A stretch of 64,000 nt of DNA, taken from assembly GCA_964291295.2 (NCBI GenBank), contig OZ219754.1, positions 736,001 through 800,000 of the forward strand, read 5' to 3'. Position numbers and translations under genes: made by a program. Of this stretch, positions 33,663-45,771 are shown piece by piece; position 1 is the first letter of the stretch, and each line of letters begins with the position of its first letter. The DNA comes from an uncultured Candidatus Binatia bacterium. GTDB lineage: Bacteria; Desulfobacterota; Binatia; UBA9968; JAJDTQ01. The notes beneath the pieces are model-generated. The model ran no database searches. It saw nothing but the letters and a program-made list of their open reading frames with translations, and was not told the DNA's origin.

Positions 33663-33825
33663 GACCCGGGAGTTGTGTCGTCAAGAAGACCGGGGGCGGC
33701 GGAAGGGATCCACGCAGGCTGTCTGCCAGGGGGACCGGCAAGGCGGCCCATTGCCCGCGCATGCCGCCGCGCCCGCCGCGAATGCGGGTCCGCGGGACAC
33801 CACCGCGCCATACGGGAGGAATCGC

Positions 33826-34611
33826 ATGAGACTTGCAGAACAGGTCGCCGTCGTCGTCGGCGGCGCCCGCGGCATCGGCGAAGCCATTGCCCATACCTTC
33901 GCCCGCGAGGGTGCAAAGATCATCCTGGTGGACCTGGAGAAGACCAAGCCCGAGCTTGACGGCGTGGTTCGAGCCATCCGGCGGAACGGCGGAGAGGCGA
34001 CCGCACTGACGGCCGACGCCACCGACGCGGCGCAGGTCGAGCGCATGGTGGCCGACGTCGTGAGCCGCTGGGGCCGGCTGGACATCCTCGTCAACAGCGT
34101 CGGCTTCCGCGGCCCCATGGTGCCGGTACACGAGATCACCGAAGAAGATTGGGACGCCGTCCTCGAGGTCAACCTCAAGGCGGCCTTTCTCTGCTGCAAG
34201 GCCGCGCTGAAGGTAATGATGGAGCGGAAGCGCGGCAGCATCGTCAGCATCTCGGGCACCGCCGGGCGCGAAGGCATGGCGCTGCGCGGCTCCCTGTGCG
34301 CCGCCAAGTGGGGCCTTCTGGGACTCACCCAGACCATCGCAAGGGAGGCCGGCCCCTCCGGCGTCCGCGCCAACGTCATCTGCCCCGGCGGCATGGACGA
34401 GGCCGACCTGCGGGACATGTACCGGGAACGGGCGAAAGGACTCGGCGTCTCCTTCGAGGCGCTGGAGAAGAGCGTCCTGGCACAGACCCCGCTGCGGAAA
34501 CACGCCCGGCACCAGGAAGTCGCCAACGCCGCCCTCTTCCTCGCCTCCGACGACTCCTCCCACACCACCGGCGAAGCACTGAACGTCTCGGGCGGCCGGC
34601 TGATGTCATGA
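33826..34611 (+). CDS. SDR family oxidoreductase
   Basis: GGARGIG, DILVN, NVICPG. The YxxxK motif appears as LCAAK. Confidence 0.9.
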   Translation: MRLAEQVAVVVGGARGIGEAIAHTFAREGAKIILVDLEKTKPELDGVVRAIRRNGGEATALTADATDAAQVERMVADVVSRWGRLDILVNSVGFRGPMVPVHEITEEDWDAVLEVNLKAAFLCCKAALKVMMERKRGSIVSISGTAGREGMALRGSLCAAKWGLLGLTQTIAREAGPSGVRANVICPGGMDEADLRDMYRERAKGLGVSFEALEKSVLAQTPLRKHARHQEVANAALFLASDDSSHTTGEALNVSGGRLMS

Positions 34612-34778
34612 GCCGCCCGGGCGGTGACGGACACGCACCGTTGAACCACCAGTGGAAATCTGCGAGACTCGCCCCATGCATGCTGGCATAAGTGTTGCTG
34701 ATACAACCTTATGTGTGGAGTGTATCCCAATTGACCGGAGCGGCAGTGTTGCCGAACGTCTCAGGGTCGGGAAGTCCC

Positions 34779-36026
34779 ATGGGATCGCCTCACAGGCAAC
34801 CTAAGTTGCCGAAATATAATCACAAACTTTCTTCCCCGGGTACTTCGGCGTTCTCGTATCCAGAGCAGGGCATATACCTTGATTATGCTGCGACGACCCC
34901 GGTTGCGCCGGAAGTCGCGCACACGATGGCCAAGTTTCTGACGGCCGACGGCGTCTTTGGAAACCCGCACTCCGTCACCCACCGCTTTGGGCATGCAGCT
35001 TCGGAGGCCGTTGAGGAGGCCCGCGAACATGTCGCGGCGTTGATTGGTGCCGAGGCCGATGACATCTTCTGGACCTCGGGTGCAACAGAGTCGATCAATC
35101 TGGCCATCAAGGGAGCACTGTTATCCCCTGGCGTACACGGCCGGCACCTGCTCGTCTCCTCACTTGAGCATAGAGCGGTACTCGACACCGCACGCTGGCT
35201 CTCCGACAAAGACCTTGACGTGACGTACCTTGCGCCTGATGCGGATGGTTTGATCACACCGGAGGTCGTCCGCGCGGGCCTTCGACCGGACACCGCGCTG
35301 GTCTCTCTCATGCACGTCAACAATGAGGTCGGCACCGTCACCGACATTTCGAGCGTCGCCCGCATGGTGCGGAACAACGGAACACTGCTTCATGTTGACG
35401 CCGCACAAAGTGCCGCACGACTCCCGATCGATGTATCGCTGATGGACGTCGATCTGCTGTCATTGAGCAGCCACAAGATCTACGGCCCGAAAGGAGTGGG
35501 GGCATTGTTTGTGCGGCGGTCTGTTCAGCCGTTGCTTGTGCCTCAAATCCACGGAGGCGGGCAGGAACATGGATTGCGGGCCGGTACGCTGGCGACCCAT
35601 CAGGTCGTTGGCATGGGAGCGGCGGCACGGCTCCTTGACGACTGTCAGAGTAGCGACGCGGAACGAGTGGCAGCCATTGACCGACGCCTCCTTGGCTGGC
35701 TGGTCGGAATTGAGGGGGCAGTCGTCAACGGCAACCGTATCGCACGAGTCCCAGGCATACTGAACATCGCCTTTCCAGGCGTGGAGGCCGAATCGCTGAT
35801 GCTGGCTCTTGACAAAGTGGCGGTCTCGGCAGGCTCCGCGTGCACGGCTTCATCCATTGAGCCCTCACACGTACTGGAAGGACTTGGTGTCACCGACACG
35901 CTGGCACTCTCCTCCGTACGATTCAGCGTGGGTCGCTATACGACGGAGGCGGACGTCGACACCGCTGGACAACGCGTTCATGACGCCGTGGCGGCTCTCC
36001 GGACCATTAGGGGCATTACGGTATGA
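34779..36026 (+). CDS. dndA: Cysteine desulfurase, DndA/IscS-like
   Basis: YLDYAATTP, SGATES, NNEVG, DAAQ, SSHKIYGPKG (PLP Lys), SAGSACT (catalytic Cys). Stop overlaps the dndC start. Start uncertain. Confidence 0.85.
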   Translation: MGSPHRQPKLPKYNHKLSSPGTSAFSYPEQGIYLDYAATTPVAPEVAHTMAKFLTADGVFGNPHSVTHRFGHAASEAVEEAREHVAALIGAEADDIFWTSGATESINLAIKGALLSPGVHGRHLLVSSLEHRAVLDTARWLSDKDLDVTYLAPDADGLITPEVVRAGLRPDTALVSLMHVNNEVGTVTDISSVARMVRNNGTLLHVDAAQSAARLPIDVSLMDVDLLSLSSHKIYGPKGVGALFVRRSVQPLLVPQIHGGGQEHGLRAGTLATHQVVGMGAAARLLDDCQSSDAERVAAIDRRLLGWLVGIEGAVVNGNRIARVPGILNIAFPGVEAESLMLALDKVAVSAGSACTASSIEPSHVLEGLGVTDTLALSSVRFSVGRYTTEADVDTAGQRVHDAVAALRTIRGITV

Positions 36027-37195
36027 AGGCATCGACGGATTCCCATACCAGCCGTAGTCGCTTGACGAGTCTACCGACGCGCCTCAACAAGATTGCGGAC
36101 ACGCTTCGAGGCGAGTACGGGCGAAAGCACAGCCATCCCTGGATTGTTGCCTATTCCGGAGGGAAAGACTCTACCCTTCTCCTGCAGATGATTTGGGAAA
36201 CCGTGATGGCGCTGCCGACAGAGCGGCGTCACCGATCCATCCTGGTCGTCGGCAACGACACTCTCGTTGAGTCGCCACTCGTCATTCGACATATGCGAGA
36301 ATCGCTCAAAGTGATCGGAGACGCCGCCGCGGCACAAGAAATGCCCGTCGACATTCGTGTCACCACACCAGCCATCGACCAGACATTCTGGGTCAGTGTG
36401 ATAGGGCGAGGCTACATCCCGCCCACAAGGAATTTTCGGTGGTGCACGGACCGGATGAAAATTCGGCCGACCAGCCAGTTGCTGCGGGACATCGTGAGGG
36501 AGTACGGAGGAGCCTTTCTCCTGATTGGTACCCGCCGGAGCGAATCGCAAAACCGGCAGCGCGGCATGGACCGGCGCAAGGTGTCTGCCGGAAAAGCCAA
36601 TCATCACGACTCTGTAGACGGCTGCCGTATCTTCTCTCCACTTGCCGACCTCGACGATGACGATGTCTGGATGGTCTTGATGCAGCGCCGCCCGCCTTGG
36701 GGTGGCACCCATCGCCACCTAATCACTCTCTATCGTCAGGCTGGCGGGGGCGAATGCCCTCTGGTCATGACCCGGGATGACGCACCATCCTGTGGCACTT
36801 CCTCCCCGCGGTTCGGTTGTTGGACATGCACCGTGGTCGCCAAAGACCGCAGTCTTCGGGGCCTGATCGACTCGGGACACAAGGACGCCACGAAGATGGA
36901 AAGCCTGTCGGACTTCCGCGAGTGGCTCATCGCTCTGCGTGAGGACAACAGCAATCGCCTACCTGTGCGCCGCGACGGTAACCCGCGGAACCGTGCTGAC
37001 GGCTCCCAAGTATTCGGTCCGTTCACCCTAGCCGTTCGTGAAACCATTCTGGAACGACTCCTCGCACTGGAGAAAACGATCGGCGACACCCTCATCAGCC
37101 CGGCCGAGATCGAGTGCATCGAAGATGTCTGGTGGCGTGACAGAATCACCGAAAACGGACGCCTCGCCCTGCTCGAATCCGTAAACGCCCCATGA
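36023..37195 (+). CDS. dndC: DNA phosphorothioation sulfurtransferase DndC (PAPS-reductase fold)
   Basis: PWIVAYSGGKDS, DTLVESP, TFWV..IGRGY.PP...FRWCTDRMKI.P, GTRRSES, ECPL, SCG..RFGCWTCTVV.KD.S, GPFTL..R. Confidence 0.9.
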   Translation: MKASTDSHTSRSRLTSLPTRLNKIADTLRGEYGRKHSHPWIVAYSGGKDSTLLLQMIWETVMALPTERRHRSILVVGNDTLVESPLVIRHMRESLKVIGDAAAAQEMPVDIRVTTPAIDQTFWVSVIGRGYIPPTRNFRWCTDRMKIRPTSQLLRDIVREYGGAFLLIGTRRSESQNRQRGMDRRKVSAGKANHHDSVDGCRIFSPLADLDDDDVWMVLMQRRPPWGGTHRHLITLYRQAGGGECPLVMTRDDAPSCGTSSPRFGCWTCTVVAKDRSLRGLIDSGHKDATKMESLSDFREWLIALREDNSNRLPVRRDGNPRNRADGSQVFGPFTLAVRETILERLLALEKTIGDTLISPAEIECIEDVWWRDRITENGRLALLESVNAP

Positions 37196-38967
37196 CCCGG
37201 GTCACGTCAGAGGTACTGCTTGTGTCCCAACTCTTCCTCAAGGGACGCTTCACCGTGCCATGGCATCAACGGTACTACGACTGGACCCTGGAACAGGTCA
37301 CCGAACTGCTGGTCGACCTGAAGGAGGCTCGCGACGAAGGCCGATCCAGTTATTTTCTCGGGTCCATCATGCTCGTCAAAGGCGAGGATGTCTGGGAAAT
37401 CAACGACGGCCAACAGCGTCTCATCACGCTTTCCCTGCTTTTTGCGGCGTTTGGCCGTCGGTTCGCAAGGAACCGGGAAAGCGACGGTGGCCGCGAGATG
37501 CTCGCATTACGCGTCCTGTTCGACCGTCCTGACACCGCCGTCGATAATTTTGACGATACGACACGCGCAGTACCGCGCATCAAGCCGCCACGTCAGGACC
37601 GATCGCGTTTTACTCAGATTATCCGTGGACTCGATATCGGCACGAACGGCAAACTGACCTCGACCTGGAATGAGGTGGCGCTGTTCGTCAGTGCAATGGG
37701 TTCACCTGAAACCCGAATGTTCTTCGACTTCCTTGTGGAGAAGGTTGAGGTTGGTGTTCTCTACGTCCCGAAGACAGAAGACGCCAACGCCGTCTTCGAG
37801 GCCTTGAACGGGCGTGGCAAACGATTGGACGATGTCGATCTGATCCGGAACCATCTCTACTCATACTTCAGCGATTCTACCGATACACAGCGTCGCCAAG
37901 CTGTCCACACACAGCTTGAAAACGTACTTGCCACCACTCGAAACCCTACTCGGTCGCAAGAGTACTTCCGCTGCTTTTTCCAGTGCAAGTACGGCTATCT
38001 TCAGAAGAAACGATTTTACCGGGATACGCGCGCGAAAATCCGCAGTTCTGTCGGCCGCCAAGATGGAGACCCATACGTCTACTTGCTCATTCATGAACTT
38101 GCCAAACCCGCCAGTGTTGAACTGTTTCGCACCATCAGTGCCACAAACCCGAGCCAGGAACTGCTTGATGCCTTCTGCAAAGCATCCGGGACCACGATGG
38201 CCAAGCGCAACCTGCCCGTTTTCATTCGGGAACTGCGTGGCTACAAGGTCGTTCAACCATTGATGTTCGCGCTACTGCGGCGGTTTGTCGAGGCTGGAGA
38301 TCAGGACCGGCACTCCGTAGCCAAAGCCGCCCATCGGTGCCTCAGCGATCTCTCCTCCTTCGTGATGCGAGTCTCTTTCTGCGAGGTCAAATTCGAACCA
38401 TCCAGACTCGAGCCGGGATTTGCCAATTGCGCCAGGAGAGTCGCCGCCAGCACCAAGGTCACGGATCTCGATATCACGACCGATCTCGAAGAGTGTGACG
38501 ATTTGCCGATAATGGATGACGCGCGATTTATTGCTCGACTCGTCGAAATACAGATGACCGACTCCCGTCGCGCCAAACGCTTGCTGTTCGGAATCATTGC
38601 CGAACAAGAACCGGAAGGCCGTGCCTTCGACTACGAGGGCTGTTCCGTGGAGCATATCTTGCCGCAGTCGAAAACCTATTGGCCCGGTTGGACCGGCTTC
38701 AAGTCGGCCGGACCCGACCTCCGGGACTGGGTTGCCCGGATCGGCAACCTGACACTGCTGGGCGACAACGTCGCCCATGCTCGGCACAGTTTCAACGCCA
38801 ACTTCGCCGCCAAGAAGCCAGATTTTGAACACAGCCCATTTGCAATGACACGCGACATTGCAAAACATGAGGACTGGACGCCAACGGCAGTGGCCGAACG
38901 CTCAAGGGACCTTGCAAAGGCGGCCAGTCAGGTATGGTGCTTTTCCAGATCCGCGGCGCGAGGATGA
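37192..38967 (+). CDS. DUF262 + DUF1524 (HNH) protein, SspE/GmrSD-like
   Basis: VPWHQRYYDW, YFLGSI, NDGQQR, FEALNGRG..L...DL; C-terminal VEHILPQ...IGNLTLL. Confidence 0.88.
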   Translation: MTRVTSEVLLVSQLFLKGRFTVPWHQRYYDWTLEQVTELLVDLKEARDEGRSSYFLGSIMLVKGEDVWEINDGQQRLITLSLLFAAFGRRFARNRESDGGREMLALRVLFDRPDTAVDNFDDTTRAVPRIKPPRQDRSRFTQIIRGLDIGTNGKLTSTWNEVALFVSAMGSPETRMFFDFLVEKVEVGVLYVPKTEDANAVFEALNGRGKRLDDVDLIRNHLYSYFSDSTDTQRRQAVHTQLENVLATTRNPTRSQEYFRCFFQCKYGYLQKKRFYRDTRAKIRSSVGRQDGDPYVYLLIHELAKPASVELFRTISATNPSQELLDAFCKASGTTMAKRNLPVFIRELRGYKVVQPLMFALLRRFVEAGDQDRHSVAKAAHRCLSDLSSFVMRVSFCEVKFEPSRLEPGFANCARRVAASTKVTDLDITTDLEECDDLPIMDDARFIARLVEIQMTDSRRAKRLLFGIIAEQEPEGRAFDYEGCSVEHILPQSKTYWPGWTGFKSAGPDLRDWVARIGNLTLLGDNVAHARHSFNANFAAKKPDFEHSPFAMTRDIAKHEDWTPTAVAERSRDLAKAASQVWCFSRSAARG

Positions 38968-39099
38968 TCCACGAAACTGCATGAGCTTGTAGTTCCCGGG
39001 TCGTAGCGCAAATTCGATGACGAAGTGCATTTCACACGCGGCTATCGCGACGTGTCAACGAGATGCGTCCGAAACGACCGTCTCTGCGTGAATCTTCGA

Positions 39100-40518
39100 A
39101 TGACGCACAACGCTCAGGCTCTCCGGCATGCAGGGGAAGATCAACTCAGGCTTCCCGCACCCCTGCACAACTACCAGTGGGAAGGCGTTGCATTCCTGTA
39201 CCAGTCCACCGCTGCCCTCCTTGCTGACGAGATGGGACTGGGGAAGACCGTCCAGGCGGCGGTCGCCTTGGCACTTCTTCTCAATGGTCAGAAGGGGATC
39301 GACCGAGCCCTGATCGTGGCACCGGCTTCGTTGACCCTGAACTGGATGTCCGAACTCGCCACTTGGGCACCGTCACTTGCGGCGCGACGGCTTCAGGGTG
39401 GAGCCGCCAGCCGGAGGGCCTCCTACCTGTTGCCGATACCTGTCCTCGTTTCCTCTTATGAACAGATCCGTCAGGATGGACTGGACCAGATTCCCAGAGA
39501 TACGTTCGATCTCGTGATCCTGGACGAGGCACAACGCATCAAGAACAGGAACTCGGCAACGGCGCTTGCCTGCCGGCTGCTACCGCGAAAACGTGCGTGG
39601 GCACTGTCCGCGACACCGCTCGAAAACGACCGTGAAGACGTCGCATCGATCCTGGCTTTCCTGGATCCCGATGTTCGTCGAGACCCCGATGCAAGGCGTC
39701 TGAAGGACAGGCTTGAGGCGATGATGCTGCGGAGACGCAAACGCGAAGTACGTGCCGAACTGCCACCCGTCATCGTACAGGATCTCAACCTGGAGCTTTC
39801 CACGCCGCAGAGAATTGCCTATGACGATCTGTGGACGGGGAGGGAGACACAAATCGACAAGGAACGATCGAGCGATTTTCACGCCGCCATGCTGGGACTC
39901 ATTACGCGACTCAAGGTGATCTGCAACTACGATGTGGCAAGCGGTGTTTCATCGAAACTGGAGGCCCTCATAGGCATTTGCGAAGGCGCCGGGCCATCGG
40001 CACGGTTGCTGCTGTTTTCGCAGTTCGTTCAGACCTTGCGACGAATCTCCCGTTCGATCGGAATACCTCACGACCTTTTGACCGGCTCCATGTCGACAAC
40101 CGAAAGACAAGTTTCGATCGACCGGTTCAGGACCGGCCAAACCCCGAGAGCCCTGTTGGTTTCCCTTCGCGCCGGCGGCGTCGGCCTTAACCTCGGGGAA
40201 GCCACCCACTCGGTTCTGTTCGACCGATGGTGGAACCCAGCGGTTGAGTTCCAGGCAATCTACAGAGCGCACCGCTTCGATCGGGAAGAGCCCCTGCATG
40301 TCATTCGTTTCGTGGTCCGAGATTCGATCGAAGAGCGAATTGCTTCGGTACTCGACCGGAAAGAGGCCCTGTTCGATGAGATCGTTGAATCTGCAGGAGC
40401 GGCACGGGGCCGACTCACCCAGCGGGAACTGATGGAGATCCTGGAACTCGTGGAGGGCAATCGCCCGCCCCCCACTCATGCAACCAAAGGAGACGAAAAG
40501 GATGGCGAAAATCGTTGA
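39100..40518 (+). CDS. Minimal SNF2-family ATPase/helicase
   Basis: YQWEG, LLADEMGLGKT, DEAQRIKN, SATPLEN, MLRR.K, LFSQF, AGGVGLNL, WWNP, RAHR. Confidence 0.92.
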   Translation: MTHNAQALRHAGEDQLRLPAPLHNYQWEGVAFLYQSTAALLADEMGLGKTVQAAVALALLLNGQKGIDRALIVAPASLTLNWMSELATWAPSLAARRLQGGAASRRASYLLPIPVLVSSYEQIRQDGLDQIPRDTFDLVILDEAQRIKNRNSATALACRLLPRKRAWALSATPLENDREDVASILAFLDPDVRRDPDARRLKDRLEAMMLRRRKREVRAELPPVIVQDLNLELSTPQRIAYDDLWTGRETQIDKERSSDFHAAMLGLITRLKVICNYDVASGVSSKLEALIGICEGAGPSARLLLFSQFVQTLRRISRSIGIPHDLLTGSMSTTERQVSIDRFRTGQTPRALLVSLRAGGVGLNLGEATHSVLFDRWWNPAVEFQAIYRAHRFDREEPLHVIRFVVRDSIEERIASVLDRKEALFDEIVESAGAARGRLTQRELMEILELVEGNRPPPTHATKGDEKDGENR

Positions 40519-41326
40519 GTACCGCGACATACCCCTCGACGACCTGGTGATTGGTCTTGGGCAAGTGCGGACGGACAATACCGGTGCCGGGGTTGAGGAA
40601 CTTGCGGCGAGCATCGAATCCCAGGGTCTGCTTCAACCGATCGTCGTCTGCGAGGCGACAAAACCCGAGAAATGGGAGATCCTCACCGGTCAGCGGCGCT
40701 TCCTCGCTCACAAGATGCTGAAACGAGAGACCATTTCGGCTGCGGTCCTTGACGGTCGTGTCGGAGAGGCACAGGCCAAAGCGATCTCGATTACTGAAAA
40801 CCTGATACGGCGCAAGCTCTCGGGCAAGGAACTCAAGGACGGGATCCTTTATCTGTATAACATCTACGGCAGTGTGAAGGATGTGGTCAAGACAACAGGC
40901 CTGCCTAATCGTGAGGTGCGGGACTACGTGAAGTATCCCCGGCTGGCGGAACCACTGAAGGACATGGTCGACGAAGGAAAAGTGGATATCAATGCCGCCC
41001 TTCGTGCCCAGGACTCGGCAACGGACGACGACGGTGTGGTCCATACCGAGGATGCCCTTGCCCTGGCAAAAGAGATGGCGTCGATGTCAGGAGCTCAACG
41101 CAAGAAGGTGGCACAGGACCGGAAAAACAACCCCGACAAACCAGTCGCGGACGTGATAGAGGATGCGAAGTCCGGGGCCAGAGTCATCCAGATAATTGCA
41201 GAAGTGACACTGGATACGCATCAAGCGATTCGGACGGTTGCACGGGAAGAAGGTATGAACCAAGGAGAAGCAACCGTCTGTCTGATCGAGGAGGCGCTGA
41301 ACGGCCGAGGGCTTCTGGAGCGGTAG
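40502..41326 (+). CDS. ParB/RepB/Spo0J-family protein
   Basis: QVR, ELAASI..QGLLQPIVV, ILTGQRR, SITENLIR; AAGGAG upstream. Confidence 0.88.
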   Translation: MAKIVEYRDIPLDDLVIGLGQVRTDNTGAGVEELAASIESQGLLQPIVVCEATKPEKWEILTGQRRFLAHKMLKRETISAAVLDGRVGEAQAKAISITENLIRRKLSGKELKDGILYLYNIYGSVKDVVKTTGLPNREVRDYVKYPRLAEPLKDMVDEGKVDINAALRAQDSATDDDGVVHTEDALALAKEMASMSGAQRKKVAQDRKNNPDKPVADVIEDAKSGARVIQIIAEVTLDTHQAIRTVAREEGMNQGEATVCLIEEALNGRGLLER

Positions 41327-41331
41327 CTGTC

Positions 41332-42042
41332 ATGTTGCCAGGCCTGAGCCCTCTGGAACTGGGGCGTCTCCGGATGTCTGTCGGTTACGGGCAGCACAAG
41401 AAGGGGCGTCTCCTCTCGCCGACCGAAGTCGGCATATTGCTACAGCGGGCGTGCAACGCGGGCAGTTCGCTTGACGAATGTGCCAGGGAGATACGAATCG
41501 ACGCGACGGGCCTCCGTCGTTTCCTGCGTATTCTTGATCTTCCGGACGACATCCGACACTTGGTCAGTTGGGGTAGCCCTCGAGATGCTGTGTCGTTCTC
41601 CTGTGCCGCAGAGTTGGCCCGAATTCCGGGAGCCGACGACCAGCGCACGGTTGTCGAAGCAATACTCGTCAACGGGATGAACAGCAAGGAGGTCCGACAG
41701 GTCGCGCAACTTCACGAACGTTCGGGACGACCGGTAAGCAAATGTGTGGAAGAAGTCCTCCACATGAGGCCAACGATCGAACGGCGTTACGTTTTCATCG
41801 GCACCATCATCGACGAGAGTGTACAGCAAGCCCTCGCCGGACTCCCACAAAGAGAAAGAGACGCACTGCTGGCGGCGAGCGTGGAGAAAATCGGCCTCGA
41901 GGGGGCATCCGGACGACTTGGGTCCAAATTTTTCACCTTGGTCGGGGAGGACAGATTCGGCGCGTCAATGGAGCGTGTCGGCAAGCAAGAGATTGAGGCT
42001 CGGCTACGCGCCCATGTCGCGGGGTGTATCGAGAGTGTCTGA
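41332..42042 (+). CDS. ParB-like HTH protein lacking the N-terminal CTPase domain
   Basis: LSPTEVG...ECAREI...RRFLRILDLPDDIRHLVSWG...SFSCAAELARI resembles the ParB central region; no GxRR box. Confidence 0.6.
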   Translation: MLPGLSPLELGRLRMSVGYGQHKKGRLLSPTEVGILLQRACNAGSSLDECAREIRIDATGLRRFLRILDLPDDIRHLVSWGSPRDAVSFSCAAELARIPGADDQRTVVEAILVNGMNSKEVRQVAQLHERSGRPVSKCVEEVLHMRPTIERRYVFIGTIIDESVQQALAGLPQRERDALLAASVEKIGLEGASGRLGSKFFTLVGEDRFGASMERVGKQEIEARLRAHVAGCIESV

Positions 42043-43057
42043 CTCGGTCGTTGACGTCCGGGAGAGCGGGAGCGTCTGCCTTGGCGAAACAGTCGTGTGT
42101 GACGGGTTCGCAAACGGCTACCGGTTTCGTGTTCAGACTCATGTCCATGAAGACCACATGGGTGGATTCAACAAGAGCAAAGGCCTGCAGGAGTTCTTGC
42201 TGAGCCCGGAGACCTACGCGCTGCTCATCGCCGAATACAACGCGGATCTGGAGTACCGCGAGAATTTTCAACCCCTCGAACGCGGCGTAGCGCATGTATT
42301 GGAAGAAGGCTCCACGCTGCGTCTGGTTCCATCAAACCACATGCTCGGATCATGCCAGGTCGCCCTCGAATTGCCCGACGGCCTCCGGATCGGGTATTCC
42401 AGCGACTTCGGCTGGCCCCTTGATGAGGTCATCCAGGTCGATGAACTGGTCGTAGACAGCACCTATGGTAACCCTCACAGCGTCCGCGGTTACACGCAGG
42501 ACCAGGCGGAGGCATGCTTGTCTGAAATAGTGTGTACAAGACTGCGGCACGGTTCGGTCCATATACACGCCCACTCTGGAACCATCGAACGCACCGTACA
42601 GATACTTGGCGACAACGTGGGTGTTCCCCTTCTGGCCACCGAGCAGCTTATCCGGCGCGTCCAGGTATACCAGCAGCATGGTCTCGCACCCGGGGTACTT
42701 GTTCCACTCGATTCAGACGACGGTAGGCATGCCGTCCAACAGCGTTCATATGTGCGGCTCTACTCGAAGGGCGACGGTTTCAAAAACGAAAGGGTCGAGG
42801 GGACAATGGTCACCTGTAGCGCCTACATGGTTGACCGAGATCATCCACTGAAAGTCTTCTCGGATCGGGCCTGCCGAGTGGCACTGTCGAACCACGCTGA
42901 TTTCGAAGAGACCCTTGCCTATGTGGCGGCAACCGGAGCGCGAACGGTCGTCACCGACAACACGCGAAACTATGGCCGTGATCTGGCAATCGCGATCAAC
43001 AATCGCCTGCCCAACGTTCGCGCGCTGCCCTCGACGAACCAATCCGAAAGGGACTGA
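42035..43057 (+). CDS. Metallo-beta-lactamase / beta-CASP nuclease
   Basis: THVHEDH, NHMLGS, YSSDF, LVVDSTYG, LSNHADF. GTG start overlaps the upstream stop. Confidence 0.85.
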   Translation: MSDSVVDVRESGSVCLGETVVCDGFANGYRFRVQTHVHEDHMGGFNKSKGLQEFLLSPETYALLIAEYNADLEYRENFQPLERGVAHVLEEGSTLRLVPSNHMLGSCQVALELPDGLRIGYSSDFGWPLDEVIQVDELVVDSTYGNPHSVRGYTQDQAEACLSEIVCTRLRHGSVHIHAHSGTIERTVQILGDNVGVPLLATEQLIRRVQVYQQHGLAPGVLVPLDSDDGRHAVQQRSYVRLYSKGDGFKNERVEGTMVTCSAYMVDRDHPLKVFSDRACRVALSNHADFEETLAYVAATGARTVVTDNTRNYGRDLAIAINNRLPNVRALPSTNQSERD

Positions 43058-43083
43058 CGGCGGTCCCACGGCCCACGGCCTTT

Positions 43084-44064
43084 CTACACGTTCACCCGTT
43101 TCATGTCGCGTGTGCGGTTGCCGGCGGCGGCAGCGTAGGGGAAGATGGCGTCGAGCCGTTGCAGGTCTTCGGCGGTGAGTTCGACGTCGATGGCCTTGAC
43201 GTTCTCTTCCAGGTGCGCGCGGCTCTTGCTGCCGGGGATGGGGATGATGTCGGGACCTTGGGCCATGAGCCATGCCAGGGCGAGCTGGGTGGTGGCAATG
43301 CCCTTGTCCCTGGCGACGGCGTCCACTTGGGTCAAGAGATCCAGGTTCCGCTCGATGTTGCCGGGTTGGAGACGGGGCTGGTGGCGGCGGCCGTCGCGTT
43401 CGGAAAGCTGGTCCAGACTGCGCACGGCACCGGCGAAGAAGCCCCGGCCCAGGGGCGAGTAGGCCATGAGCCCCATGCCGAACTCACGGCAGGTCTCGAT
43501 GTTGCCCTGCTCGGGGTCCCGCGACCACAGCGAGTACTCGATCTGGAGCGACACGATGGGGTGGACTTTCCGGGCGCGCCGTATGGAATCGGCGCTGGCC
43601 TCGGACAGGCCGATGTAGCGGCTCTTCCCCTGCTCCACGAGCCGCGCCATGCCGCCCACCGACTCCTCCACCGGAACACCGGGGTCGATGCGGGACATGC
43701 AGTAAACGTCCAGGCAGTCGATGCCCAGCCGCCGGAGGCTCTCCTCGCAGGTCCGGATCAGATATTCGGGCGAGCCGCCGCCGTCGAGGCCGGTTCCGTC
43801 CTGGGCCCGCGGGCTGCCCGATTTGGAGTGGATCACCACCTGGTCGCGCCTGCCCTTGATGGCCTTGCCGATGAGCACGTGGTTGTGTCCGTCGCCGTAG
43901 CTCGCCGAGGTGTCGAGCAGGTTGAGGCCCAACTCGAAGGCCCGGTGCAGCGTGGCGATGGATTCGTCGTCGTCGCGCGCTCCGTACATGCCCGACATGC
44001 TGAGGCAGCCGAGCCCCAGGGGCGCCACCTTGTAGTCGGTGGTGCCGAATTGGCGGTATTCCAT
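43084..44064 (-). CDS. Aldo/keto reductase
   Basis: LGLGC, LDTSASYG, SLRRL, IGLSE, QIEYSL, YSPLGRG, IPG. Confidence 0.93.
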   Translation of the reverse strand: MEYRQFGTTDYKVAPLGLGCLSMSGMYGARDDDESIATLHRAFELGLNLLDTSASYGDGHNHVLIGKAIKGRRDQVVIHSKSGSPRAQDGTGLDGGGSPEYLIRTCEESLRRLGIDCLDVYCMSRIDPGVPVEESVGGMARLVEQGKSRYIGLSEASADSIRRARKVHPIVSLQIEYSLWSRDPEQGNIETCREFGMGLMAYSPLGRGFFAGAVRSLDQLSERDGRRHQPRLQPGNIERNLDLLTQVDAVARDKGIATTQLALAWLMAQGPDIIPIPGSKSRAHLEENVKAIDVELTAEDLQRLDAIFPYAAAAGNRTRDMKRVNV

Positions 44065-44175
44065 CAGTGATCTCCCCTGTCGCGGCTCAAGCCGGCCGGC
44101 TCCCGGCACTGTCGTGGAGGCCGGGCGTGTGCGCGCCCGTTCCGGCCAAGGTTGTTCTTGCATCCAGGACCATCG

Positions 44176-45771
44176 TTACATGCCTGGCGGCGTTTTCGTA
44201 AGCTCGCCAAGTTGTTCCGGATCTTCCACGACCAGGAACTGTCCCATCATCCCGTTATCTTCATGTTCCACGATGTGGCAGTGGTACATGTAGGGAACCT
44301 GCGGGTCCGCATATCGCTCGAAGGGCATGATGATCCGGACGAGATCATCGGGAAGCACCAGAACCGTGTCTTTCCAGCCAAGTTCGGCACCGGTGGGCGG
44401 CTGGCCGTTGCGATCAAGGATCTGAAACTGCACCAGGTGGACATGGAAGGGGTGCGGCTGACCGCCGCGATTGCTTACTTCCCAGATCTCGATGTCTCCC
44501 CGTCGCACGACCTCGTCAATGCGCGCCATGTCCATCAGCTTGCCGTTGATCGGTGGTCCCGACGGGCCACCCGGTCCCGCCCGTCCTCCCTGCACAGGCC
44601 CTCCCAACACCATCGGACGGCTCCTGGCGGCTTGTGCGGCATGGATGCGGGAGATGGTGTTGAGACGCTCCGGCAGCGGGTGGGACGGGCGGCTCGCCGG
44701 CCGGGGAACGATCTTCAACAACTCAAGGTTCCCCGTGCCGATGCCGCCGAAAAACGACTCGATCGTCTCCGGCAGTCCCGCTTCCGGGTGGCTTTTCATC
44801 ACCACCTCGGCACCATCGCTGAAGTCCACAAGGATCTCGGCCCGCTCGCCGGGAGCGAGGCGCACGCGGTGGGTCGGGAGGGGCGTCTCAAGGAATCCGC
44901 CATCCGTGGCGATCTGATGGAACATGCGGTTGTCGTCGAATCCGATGTGGTAAATTCGCGCATTCGAGCCGTTCAACAGCCTGAACCGAATGCGCCGTGA
45001 CTCGACCTGGAGAAATGGATTCCAGGTGCCGTTGATCAGCATGGTGTCTCCATAAACGGCGCCCTGGCTGACAGCAAAACGAAACGCACCATCGTGCTCG
45101 AACAACCGGTCCTGGATCACGAGTGGAATGTCGTCAACCCCGTAGGTCCCCGGCAGATCCAGCGCATCGCCGTGATCGTCATCGATCCACATGAAGCCGG
45201 CGACGCCACGATACACGTGTCGCCCGGTCTTGCCATGCGGATGAGGGTGATACCACAGCGCAGCCGCCTGTTGATCGACCTGGAAGCTGGCCGTCCACGA
45301 TTCTCCGGGTTCGATCCCTTGATGCGGCGTGCCGTCCATGCGAGCGGGAACGTGCATTCCGTGCCAGTGCATCGTCGTCATTTCATCCAGGTTGTTCCGG
45401 ACGGTCAGATCGACCTGCTCGCCTCGACGCAGTCGCAGCGTCGGTCCCAGAAACGGGCCGTTGACGCCCGCGGTCGGCGTCCGTTTGCCTGGCAGGAACT
45501 CCCGGCTCCCTTCGGCAACATTCAGCTGCCACTGCCGGCGTCCCTCCACGACCGTTCCGAATGACTGATCGGGAATCCGCAGTCTGTTCTCGAAGGTCAA
45601 CCCGCCGTTGGTGACCCGGACGAACAGCAGCCAGTAGCCGGTCACGCCCGACAACAGGACGACCATCAACAATCCCATGGCGACCTGCTTCAACCGCCGG
45701 GGACTGAGCCCCCGGCACCACCGGAGGGCCTTCAGTCGAGCGGGACTCCCCGGCGTTGTCGCTGCGGGCAT
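44176..45771 (-). CDS. Multicopper oxidase (CueO/SufI-like)
   Basis: HWHG, WYHPH, HPFHVH, HCHIVEHEDNGMM. Confidence 0.92.
   Translation of the reverse strand: MPAATTPGSPARLKALRWCRGLSPRRLKQVAMGLLMVVLLSGVTGYWLLFVRVTNGGLTFENRLRIPDQSFGTVVEGRRQWQLNVAEGSREFLPGKRTPTAGVNGPFLGPTLRLRRGEQVDLTVRNNLDEMTTMHWHGMHVPARMDGTPHQGIEPGESWTASFQVDQQAAALWYHPHPHGKTGRHVYRGVAGFMWIDDDHGDALDLPGTYGVDDIPLVIQDRLFEHDGAFRFAVSQGAVYGDTMLINGTWNPFLQVESRRIRFRLLNGSNARIYHIGFDDNRMFHQIATDGGFLETPLPTHRVRLAPGERAEILVDFSDGAEVVMKSHPEAGLPETIESFFGGIGTGNLELLKIVPRPASRPSHPLPERLNTISRIHAAQAARSRPMVLGGPVQGGRAGPGGPSGPPINGKLMDMARIDEVVRRGDIEIWEVSNRGGQPHPFHVHLVQFQILDRNGQPPTGAELGWKDTVLVLPDDLVRIIMPFERYADPQVPYMYHCHIVEHEDNGMMGQFLVVEDPEQLGELTKTPPGM

Follow-up and report, generated by a model that had tools for sequence, protein, structure and literature searches.

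This study concerns a block of seven genes in a 64,000-nt stretch of DNA (hereafter the window; coordinates are those of the window unless a contig or locus is named) from an uncultured Candidatus Binatia bacterium, contig OZ219754.1, positions 736,001 to 800,000. The genes, referred to as g1 to g7, lie on the forward strand and form a candidate defence island related to DNA phosphorothioation (PT) systems. A DndA-like desulfurase, a short DndC and a DndI-like protein (g1-g3, the first module) are followed by an SNF2-family ATPase, a ParB-family protein, a ParB-type helix-turn-helix (HTH) protein (ParB') and a beta-CASP nuclease (g4-g7, the cassette).

The inserted island measures 8,459 bp (34625..43083, no strand given). 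Its bounds were placed here because in three genomes of the same genus, in which the site is empty, homology to the flanks stops at 34623-34624 and restarts at 43083-43084. A spacer of ~150-195 bp stands in place of the island in these relatives. GC content, taken in 1-kb segments, is 0.55-0.61 within the block against 0.64-0.71 in the flanks. The empty sites indicate that the island is horizontally acquired. A search for mobility signals found no tRNA gene within the window, no repeats, direct or inverted, where the island ends, and no integrase adjoining it. The seven co-oriented, intact open reading frames (ORFs) lie where an earlier interpretation of the letters alone (the sequence-only reading) had placed them, and the lower GC and close packing that it described are confirmed: ATGA overlaps join g1 to g2 (36023) and g2 to g3 (37192), a 5-nt gap separates g5 from g6, g6 and g7 overlap by 8 nt, and g4 and g5 overlap by 17 nt provided that g5 starts at its second Met (40502). 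A gap of 57 nt separates g3 from g4.

Twenty eight genomes of the genus were screened, including the source genome (3.7 Mb, 3 contigs, 99% complete). A short DndC was found in nine of these and g7 in five. The short DndCs of the genus fall at 86-87%, 70-72% and 64% identity and are mostly at other sites. Two genomes carry divergent islands elsewhere in the chromosome (G307:C1:688024-695780 and G308:C1:474022-482026), with g2 and g7 at 64-73% protein identity, which points to repeated independent acquisition inside one genus. A further genome (G312:C43:16900-19300, locus L173) holds a decaying copy at the window's insertion site, consisting of g1 and a g2 cut off after codon 224, with g3-g7 deleted. 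Across the phylum, g7 was found in one of 301 genomes sampled, that one being the source genome; a search of 72,556 plasmids gave no match to it, and viral contigs contained no relative.

A short DndC beside a DndI-like protein

The first gene, g1 (34779..36026, forward strand, with an alternative start at 34692), encodes a DndA/SspA-type cysteine desulfurase (pyridoxal-phosphate class V; Aminotran_5, PF00266, 3e-82) that scores 478 bits as SspA and 466 bits as DndA in PADLOC. It is a dedicated extra desulfurase, its nearest paralogues (C1:1.627-1.629 Mb of the source genome) being IscS/NifS-like and 41-45% identical. The second gene, g2 (36023..37195, forward strand), encodes a PP-loop sulfurtransferase of 390 aa and is the sole DndC in the source genome. 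It matches the DndC model TIGR03183 at 338 bits against a cut-off of 290, over model positions 11-341 of 447, and scores 364 bits as DndC but only 24.5 bits as SspD in PADLOC. The SGGKDST loop and Cys141, Cys201, Cys245, Cys257, Cys266 and Cys269 are invariant in 38 orthologues. Homologues number in the thousands; among the best 120, lengths are 359-399 aa and identities 66-87%. The idea that the short form is a truncation found in this island alone was rejected, since DndCs of 355-375 aa also occur on plasmids, at 44-50% identity, within DndD/DndE or CxC-type loci.

To our knowledge, no natural modification of the DNA backbone other than PT has been described, and DndD/E, or else SspB/C or BrxC, are regarded as indispensable to its writers. 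Profile searches of the source genome gave no match to DndD (TIGR03185), DndE (TIGR03184), DndB (PF14072) or SspB (DUF4007). The controls for DndE and DUF4007 matched nowhere; the genome was therefore also searched by tblastn with DndB, DndD and DndE proteins from metagenomic loci. Neither DndB nor DndE was returned, and the single DndD-like match was weak and lay at a distant site. DndD was above the cut-off in none of five other genomes carrying the island genes. Of the canonical DndABCDE set, DndC is thus present, and DndD or a CxC-type ATPase, DndE and DndB were not found. Nor does the locus conform to the Ssp type: g2 is not SspD-like and DUF4007 was not found in the genome, SspC having had no dedicated search.

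The third gene, g3 (37192..38967, forward strand), combines DUF262, a nucleoside triphosphatase (NTPase) domain, with DUF1524, an HNH nickase domain (GmrSD_N and GmrSD_C). The family profile of g3 is nearest to DndI (9JFL, E 4.2e-27, chain residues 3-286 and 487-596), against 1.2e-16 for SspE; as a single sequence, g3 matches SspE only over the first ~100 residues. The DGQQR motif, His488, Asn519 and Asn535 are invariant in the family. Two of the identifications made in the sequence-only reading can thus be judged here: g2 is a true DndC-type protein, as claimed, whereas g3, which had been called SspE-like, is closer to DndI. Its remark that dndB, dndD, dndE and sspB are missing agrees with the searches of the 99% complete genome.

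DndI is known from Salmonella Cerro 87 (IscS-DndBCDE-DndI), where it is described, in the accessible text of PMC11662687, as a PT-sensing ATPase-nickase that senses PT through Tyr25, nicks PT-free DNA and harms cells without PT. It shares with g3 the DUF262 (DGQQR) and DUF1524 HNH architecture at ~590 aa and is the best solved relative over both domains, and each is encoded beside a DndC-based writer. In contrast to the DndI locus, the island is without DndB, DndD and DndE, and g3 follows dndC directly, with an ATGA overlap. Moreover, Tyr25 of DndI, which is also Tyr in the aligned SspE, aligns with His25 of g3, and this position is His in at least 90% of 39 orthologues.

A complex of g2 and g3 was predicted with a median score of 0.71 (0.74, 0.65 and 0.71), the best of three controls reaching 0.28. 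Of 80 solved complexes, 58 attain the pass mark, as do 2 of 110 mismatched pairs; these counts hold only roughly because self-made alignments were used. The model runs have at least 93% of contacts in common, and the predicted local distance difference test (pLDDT) value of the partner is at least 82. On the DndC side the modelled interface comprises residues 115-120, 148-160, 318-322 and the C-terminal helix 360-389, which contains the invariant E362, I366, W370 and D373; on the g3 side it comprises residues 124-168, 244-250, 305-328 and 365-370. We know of no solved DndC-DUF262 complex. The model supports binding of g3 to DndC, without demonstrating it, and the accessible text of PMC11662687 describes no such contact for DndI.

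It is conceivable that the first module is no PT writer: the short DndC could thiolate or adenylate some other nucleic-acid target, and g3 could be an ordinary type IV, GmrSD-like enzyme directed against modified phage DNA. The best PADLOC matches of g3 are indeed to HEC-06 and mREase_IV-type models, its PT-sensing Tyr is replaced by His, and Rakesh et al. (PMC10853773, in the text accessible) argue that Dnd writers could not function if the ABC ATPase and DndE were missing. However, g2 exceeds the curated cut-off for DndC and retains every motif cysteine, is translationally coupled both to a dedicated desulfurase and to g3, and is predicted to contact the latter. Moreover, the evolutionary distances of g1, g2 and g3 correlate closely (see below), and the nearest DndCs outside the clade (44-50% identity) occur in DndD/DndE or CxC-type loci. 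We regard this alternative as very improbable.

Further forms of these genes were seen. At five loci (L026, L032, L038, L041 and L075) g3 is split, with a separate ORF of ~216 aa carrying the DUF262 N-terminus, representing either decay or a two-gene form. A DUF262-only protein (GmrSD_N, 376 aa) lies near some islands (L072:16992-18122 and three other loci), and a 34% identical relative of it is encoded in the source genome outside the window (C1:489300-490301).

The SNF2-ParB-ParB'-beta-CASP cassette

The cassette begins with g4 (39025..40518, forward strand, start uncertain), a minimal SNF2-family ATPase (SNF2-rel_dom, PF00176, 1.5e-43; Helicase_C, PF00271, 9e-18) whose orthologues are ~468 aa long. 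Its Walker A, DEAQ and QAxxRAHR motifs are kept in 77 sequences, and DpdE and ZorD are its best PADLOC matches among the best 25 of 39. Outside the window, the source genome encodes another SNF2 core (C1:1642922-1644265) that is paralogous to g4, with 39% identity over 454 residues. The product of g5 (40502..41326, forward strand, alternative start 40478) has the N-terminal NTPase-type domain and the HTH of the ParB family, with ParB_N at 49.9 bits (cut-off 26.3) and TIGR00180 at 62 bits (cut-off 58). Its GQRR and ENLxxR motifs, which we take to be the arginine-rich NTP-binding motifs of ParB, are kept in 75 sequences. By its N-terminal domain, its NTP-binding motifs and its HTH, g5 is classed from sequence as a ParB/Spo0J protein.

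The product of g6 (41332..42042, forward strand) is a ParB-type HTH protein without the N-terminal domain, in which HTH_ParB scores below its cut-off and a C-terminal alpha/beta domain follows. Its AlphaFold2 model (pLDDT 91.8) gives weak but consistent fold matches to the DNA-binding domains of Spo0J, Noc, ParB and KorB (E ~0.01 over 100-125 residues). The last gene, g7 (42035..43057, forward strand), encodes a nuclease of the beta-CASP metallo-beta-lactamase fold and of Artemis/Apollo size. Lactamase_B_2 matches only weakly, and the assignment comes from a fold search: the AlphaFold2 model (pLDDT 89.6) matches Artemis, Apollo, CPSF73 and RNase J with a Foldseek probability of 1.0, and over the range of hits, SNM1A included, E values run from 5e-15 to 1e-11 and template modelling (TM) scores from 0.65 to 0.72. 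All 39 sequences compared share H36xH38xD40H41, H102, D124 and H287. The only notable NCBIfam match is TIGR04122, a ligase-associated DNA-damage-response exonuclease, at 48 bits and far under its cut-off. The g7 family is small (a threshold of E<=1e-30 gathers 237 representatives out of 1.84 billion), and in every case observed it occurs with ParB-type partners. Judged by their residues, the catalytic motifs of g2, g3, g4, g5 and g7 are intact.

Two proteins, P0124 (582 aa; 40% identity to g6 over 215 residues) and P0128 (459 aa), appear to be natural fusions of g6 with g7. An assembly frameshift could also yield such a fusion, because the two genes overlap.

Recurrence and separate inheritance of the two modules

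Contigs from one genome per species contained 567 loci encoding a g2 relative, and the best 80 of these (60-87% identity) were analysed. They span 12 named phyla, and the DndC tree requires at least 23 changes of phylum. In this tree, 81 sequences form one group (SH-aLRT 92, not starred), from which three plasmid DndCs linked to DndD/E stand apart. The g3 gene follows g2 in 73 of the 80 loci. A complete g4-g7 cassette is present, in the same order, in 41, five of which also carry a DndB-like gene; in 25 others it is replaced by a GIY-YIG nuclease (111 aa) together with a DndB/DGQHR protein (426 aa). A DndB-like gene without g3 is found in a further three. Neither accessory module is complete in 11 loci, three of them on cut contigs and several visibly decaying. 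Labels on the DndC tree change at least 12 times for the cassette and at least 14 times for the GIY-YIG/DndB pair, and in L006, L007 and L043 the cassette lies upstream or in the opposite orientation. DndE was found in none of the 80 loci and DndD-like pieces in two. The recurrence of the gene order in unrelated taxa without DndD/E, which the sequence-only reading proposed to look for, is therefore a fact for 41 of the 80 loci, more than chance would give. The names of many carrier metagenome-assembled genomes (Poriferihabitaceae, Porisulfidus) presumably point to sponge symbionts.

A closer inspection of neighbouring genes showed a 500-aa protein matching TIGR04096 ('DNA phosphorothioation-associated putative methyltransferase', 432 bits) at L053:5637-7163 and at seven other loci among L002-L081. 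It was also seen in the metagenomic loci L099, L135, L149, L157 and L161, and so accompanies both kinds of DndC locus.

Metagenomes were searched with a g7 profile, and 80 of 100 relatives (36-66% identity) were kept. The four cassette genes remain together there, mostly attached to canonical dnd genes. Among 51 loci with at least three cassette genes, DndC is present in 28, DndD in 25, DndE in 25 and g3 in 3. Of the 14 loci flanked by 5 kb or more on each side, 13 contain DndC, accompanied by DndD and DndE in 10 and by g3 in 3, and by both in none. A representative order (L126) is dndB, dndC (500 aa), dndD, dndE, dndA, SNF2, ParB, ParB' and beta-CASP, with DndB, DndC, DndD and DndE above their NCBIfam cut-offs and DndA below (440 vs 480 bits). 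The only long-flank locus without DndC (L143:7159-17708) has sspA-B-C-D (442, 317, 1056 and 360 bits in PADLOC) convergent with ParB-ParB'-beta-CASP, a phage-type integrase taking the place of SNF2. No genes of DndFGH size recur near the cassette in the metagenomic loci. In three loci of the canonical type (L111, L117 at ~11.3-12.5 kb, and L134), a 380-aa HARE-HTH and Mrr-type restriction endonuclease lies between the cassette and dndB.

The cassette of the window is as similar to cassettes of canonical dnd loci (g7 61-65%) as to those of short-DndC loci, even though the respective DndCs are only 34-41% identical. Pairwise protein distances over 32 loci and the window correlate at r 0.90-0.94 within g1-g3 and at 0.87-0.92 within g4-g7, but at 0.65-0.77 between the two sets. 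By these sequence comparisons, g1-g3 and g4-g7 are two modules inherited separately.

These data bear directly on the model put forward in the sequence-only reading, that SNF2, ParB/ParB' and beta-CASP replace DndD/DndE (or SspB/SspC) as ATPase, clamp and nickase, giving a single seven-gene hybrid writer with g3 as its effector. DndD/E and SspB were indeed not found in the source genome, the cassette can lie inside dnd operons, and 69 of the 80 short-DndC loci have either the cassette or the GIY-YIG and DndB-like pair, each of which combines a nuclease with a ParB-superfamily protein. However, the role of stand-in is not supported, because the cassette usually coexists with DndD/E: intact dndD-dndE lie beside it in 25 of the 51 loci, and 10 of the 14 long-flank loci show the same. 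It is, moreover, inherited apart from g1-g3, its label and that of its GIY-YIG/DndB counterpart each require at least 12 changes on the DndC tree, the counterpart has no motor ATPase, and it is the DUF262/DUF1524 gene g3, rather than the cassette, that alternates with DndD/E. We consider the model unlikely.

Separate inheritance raises the opposite question, namely whether the modules are mere neighbours in a defence island, functionally unlinked. Defence genes are known to cluster, and a 57-nt gap parts g3 from g4. Against this, 13 of the 14 long-flank cassette loci have DndC, across DndC types only 34-41% identical, and 41 of the 80 short-DndC loci have the cassette in the same order. Unlinked neighbours are an extremely improbable explanation.

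A different role for the cassette also has to be weighed, as a maintenance, repair or control device for PT-marked chromosomes, acting on nicks or oxidised PT sites or, like DndB, limiting over-modification. The fold of g7 matches the repair nucleases Artemis, Apollo and SNM1A, its sub-threshold TIGR04122 match is to a repair exonuclease, and the cassette is co-oriented within dnd operons, where it can replace or accompany a DndB-like regulator. It is, however, patchy and mobile in the manner of defence genes (five of 28 genomes of one genus), other defence genes lie near it (HARE-HTH-Mrr, PDC-S06), and many PT-writer loci of the same clade do without it. A device of this kind seems to us decidedly unlikely.

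As had been read from the sequence, a short-chain dehydrogenase/reductase (adh_short, adh_short_C2; 33673..34611, forward strand) flanks it on the left and an aldo/keto reductase (PF00248, 6e-72; 43084..44163, reverse strand) on the right; both are chromosomal genes kept beside the empty site in relatives. A multicopper oxidase (44176-45771, reverse strand), an ordinary chromosomal neighbour, adjoins the aldo/keto reductase. A scan for promoters and terminators gave counts not above those of shuffled sequences and is therefore uninformative on operon structure.

A putative PT writer with a possible linked effector

Taken together, these data make it somewhat more probable than the alternatives combined that the block is a horizontally acquired PT-type defence island made of two separately inherited modules, a PT writer/sensor without DndD/E and a portable, PT-linked effector cassette. 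Since g3 alternates with DndD/E, brings an NTPase and a nickase and is predicted to contact DndC, a DndD/E-less writer with g3 as helper is the most economical model for the first module. The cassette, which is associated with three kinds of PT writer, behaves like the interchangeable PT effector cassettes DndFGH, PbeABCD, DndI and SspE and is for this reason read as a PT-linked effector. That role is suggested by its position and domains, and a part in repair, maintenance or regulation is also possible.

The proposed mechanism would run as follows. The DndA-like g1 would take sulfur from cysteine, and the short DndC, whose PP-loop and Fe-S cysteines are intact, would insert it into the DNA backbone. 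Filling the genomic slot of DndD-DndE, g3 would bind DndC and supply NTPase activity, nicking and DNA scanning; like DndI, it may also read PT and so spare self DNA. ParB (g5) and the HTH-only g6 would load on DNA, the SNF2 motor g4 would translocate, and the beta-CASP nuclease g7, tethered by g6, would attack unmarked DNA. We put forward, as a tentative hypothesis with the odds somewhat against it, the specific form in which a heterocomplex of short DndC and DndI-like NTPase-nickase writes, and perhaps reads, PT without DndD-DndE, and in which SNF2-ParB-ParB'-beta-CASP is a PT-dependent effector compatible with canonical Dnd, with the DndD/E-less writer and with Ssp, a ParB-type clamp finding the unmarked DNA.

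Several observations count against a two-module PT island. PT modification and defence are predictions, for the source organism as for every carrier of the short-DndC clade, and the contact between DndC and g3 is likewise that of a model. The near-invariant His in place of Tyr25 implies that PT reading by g3 may differ from that of DndI or be absent, and g3 matches generic type IV (GmrSD/HEC-06) PADLOC models better than any Dnd- or Ssp-specific one. Some of the 11 loci without both accessory modules (L002, L071) nevertheless retain an intact g3. For the cassette, the putative effector role is read from genomic position, and its location inside dnd operons, between dndE and dndA in loci of the L092 type, would fit a helper of modification or repair. 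The Ssp link is a single locus (L143), without SNF2. Sampling is also thin, comprising the best 80 of 567 genome loci, 80 of 100 metagenomic loci and 14 cassette loci with long flanks.

Comparison with described systems places the two-module island among PT systems without equating it with any of them. With DndABCDE-DndFGH it shares homologous DndA and DndC and the logic of a writer with a separate effector, and a cassette of the window's type follows dndBCDEA in metagenomes; it differs in that DndB, DndD and DndE were not found in the source genome and in a DndC of 390 aa rather than ~500. SspABCD-SspE likewise joins a desulfurase, a PAPS-reductase-type enzyme and a DUF262/DUF1524 effector, and L143 has g5-g7 beside sspABCD. 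The cassette resembles the PbeABCD part of DndCDEA-PbeABCD in being a four-gene unit of conserved order, attached to a Dnd writer and transferred between phyla. Identity with PbeABCD was nonetheless rejected, as the sequence-only reading had held: Xiong et al. (PMC6459918) describe, in the text accessible, PbeA as a DEAD helicase with a phospholipase-D-type nuclease motif, PbeB as a protein of 66 aa, PbeC as an SMC-like AAA protein and PbeD as a protein of 152 aa, none of them ParB, ParB-type HTH or beta-CASP. In PADLOC, which includes a PbeC model, g5-g7 had no Pbe match.

Outside the Dnd and Ssp families, the Dpd 7-deazaguanine system is a DNA-modification defence with a ParB-superfamily NTPase (DpdB) and SNF2-type helicases, and g4 matches DpdE at 1.5e-55; however, g4 is the ATPase core alone, matching the C-terminal third of the DpdE models, and the island is without TGT/DpdA-type genes. 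Similarly, g7 has the fold, size and metal-binding motifs of SNM1/Artemis/Apollo but is 13-21% identical to them and belongs to a small prokaryotic family. PT synthesis by one DndC-like gene without DndD/E is known by description from TdpABC: according to the accessible text of PMC12914056, tdpC on its own is enough for the synthesis of PT in that system, which provides a precedent for a writer without DndD/E.

In the text of Rakesh et al. accessible to us (PMC10853773), DndD/CxC-DndE is the obligate core of Dnd modification, and the Dnd-linked nucleases named are HKD, HNH, REase, URI, HEPN and PIN, beta-CASP not being among them. Horn et al. (PMC5099237, accessible text) reported Dnd genes to be enriched in sponge metagenomes 'even though not functionally complete'. 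The parts available of two further papers touch on the first module: a gut microbiome study (PMC12914056) counts the DUF262 neighbourhood of one dndC cluster among candidate new systems, and a study of sponge Thaumarchaeota (PMC6790972) mentions DUF262 genes beside dndC-like genes without further analysis. Neither a dnd-linked SNF2-ParB-ParB'-beta-CASP cassette nor the alternation of DndD/E with g3 was found in open-access text, supplements aside, and the architecture accordingly appears undescribed, as the sequence-only reading had supposed.

The short-DndC clade keeps its catalytic residues, has lost DndD/E and has reached at least 12 phyla at 60-87% identity, which suggests a simpler writer or one with a new, DndI-like helper. 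In either case the way of searching for PT systems would have to change, as current rules such as 'dndCD' would miss all systems of this kind. If the proposal is true, a g3-DndC writer would overturn DndD/E as the obligate Dnd core, and a writer without them may explain the 'functionally incomplete' Dnd signal of sponge metagenomes. The cassette would then be a further PT restriction partner beside DndFGH, PbeABCD, DndI and SspE/SspFGH, and would give a ParB-type DNA clamp, together with a beta-CASP nuclease, a role in defence. The carriers look like the gene pool of a shared habitat; if the sponge link holds, the island marks intense gene exchange across phyla.

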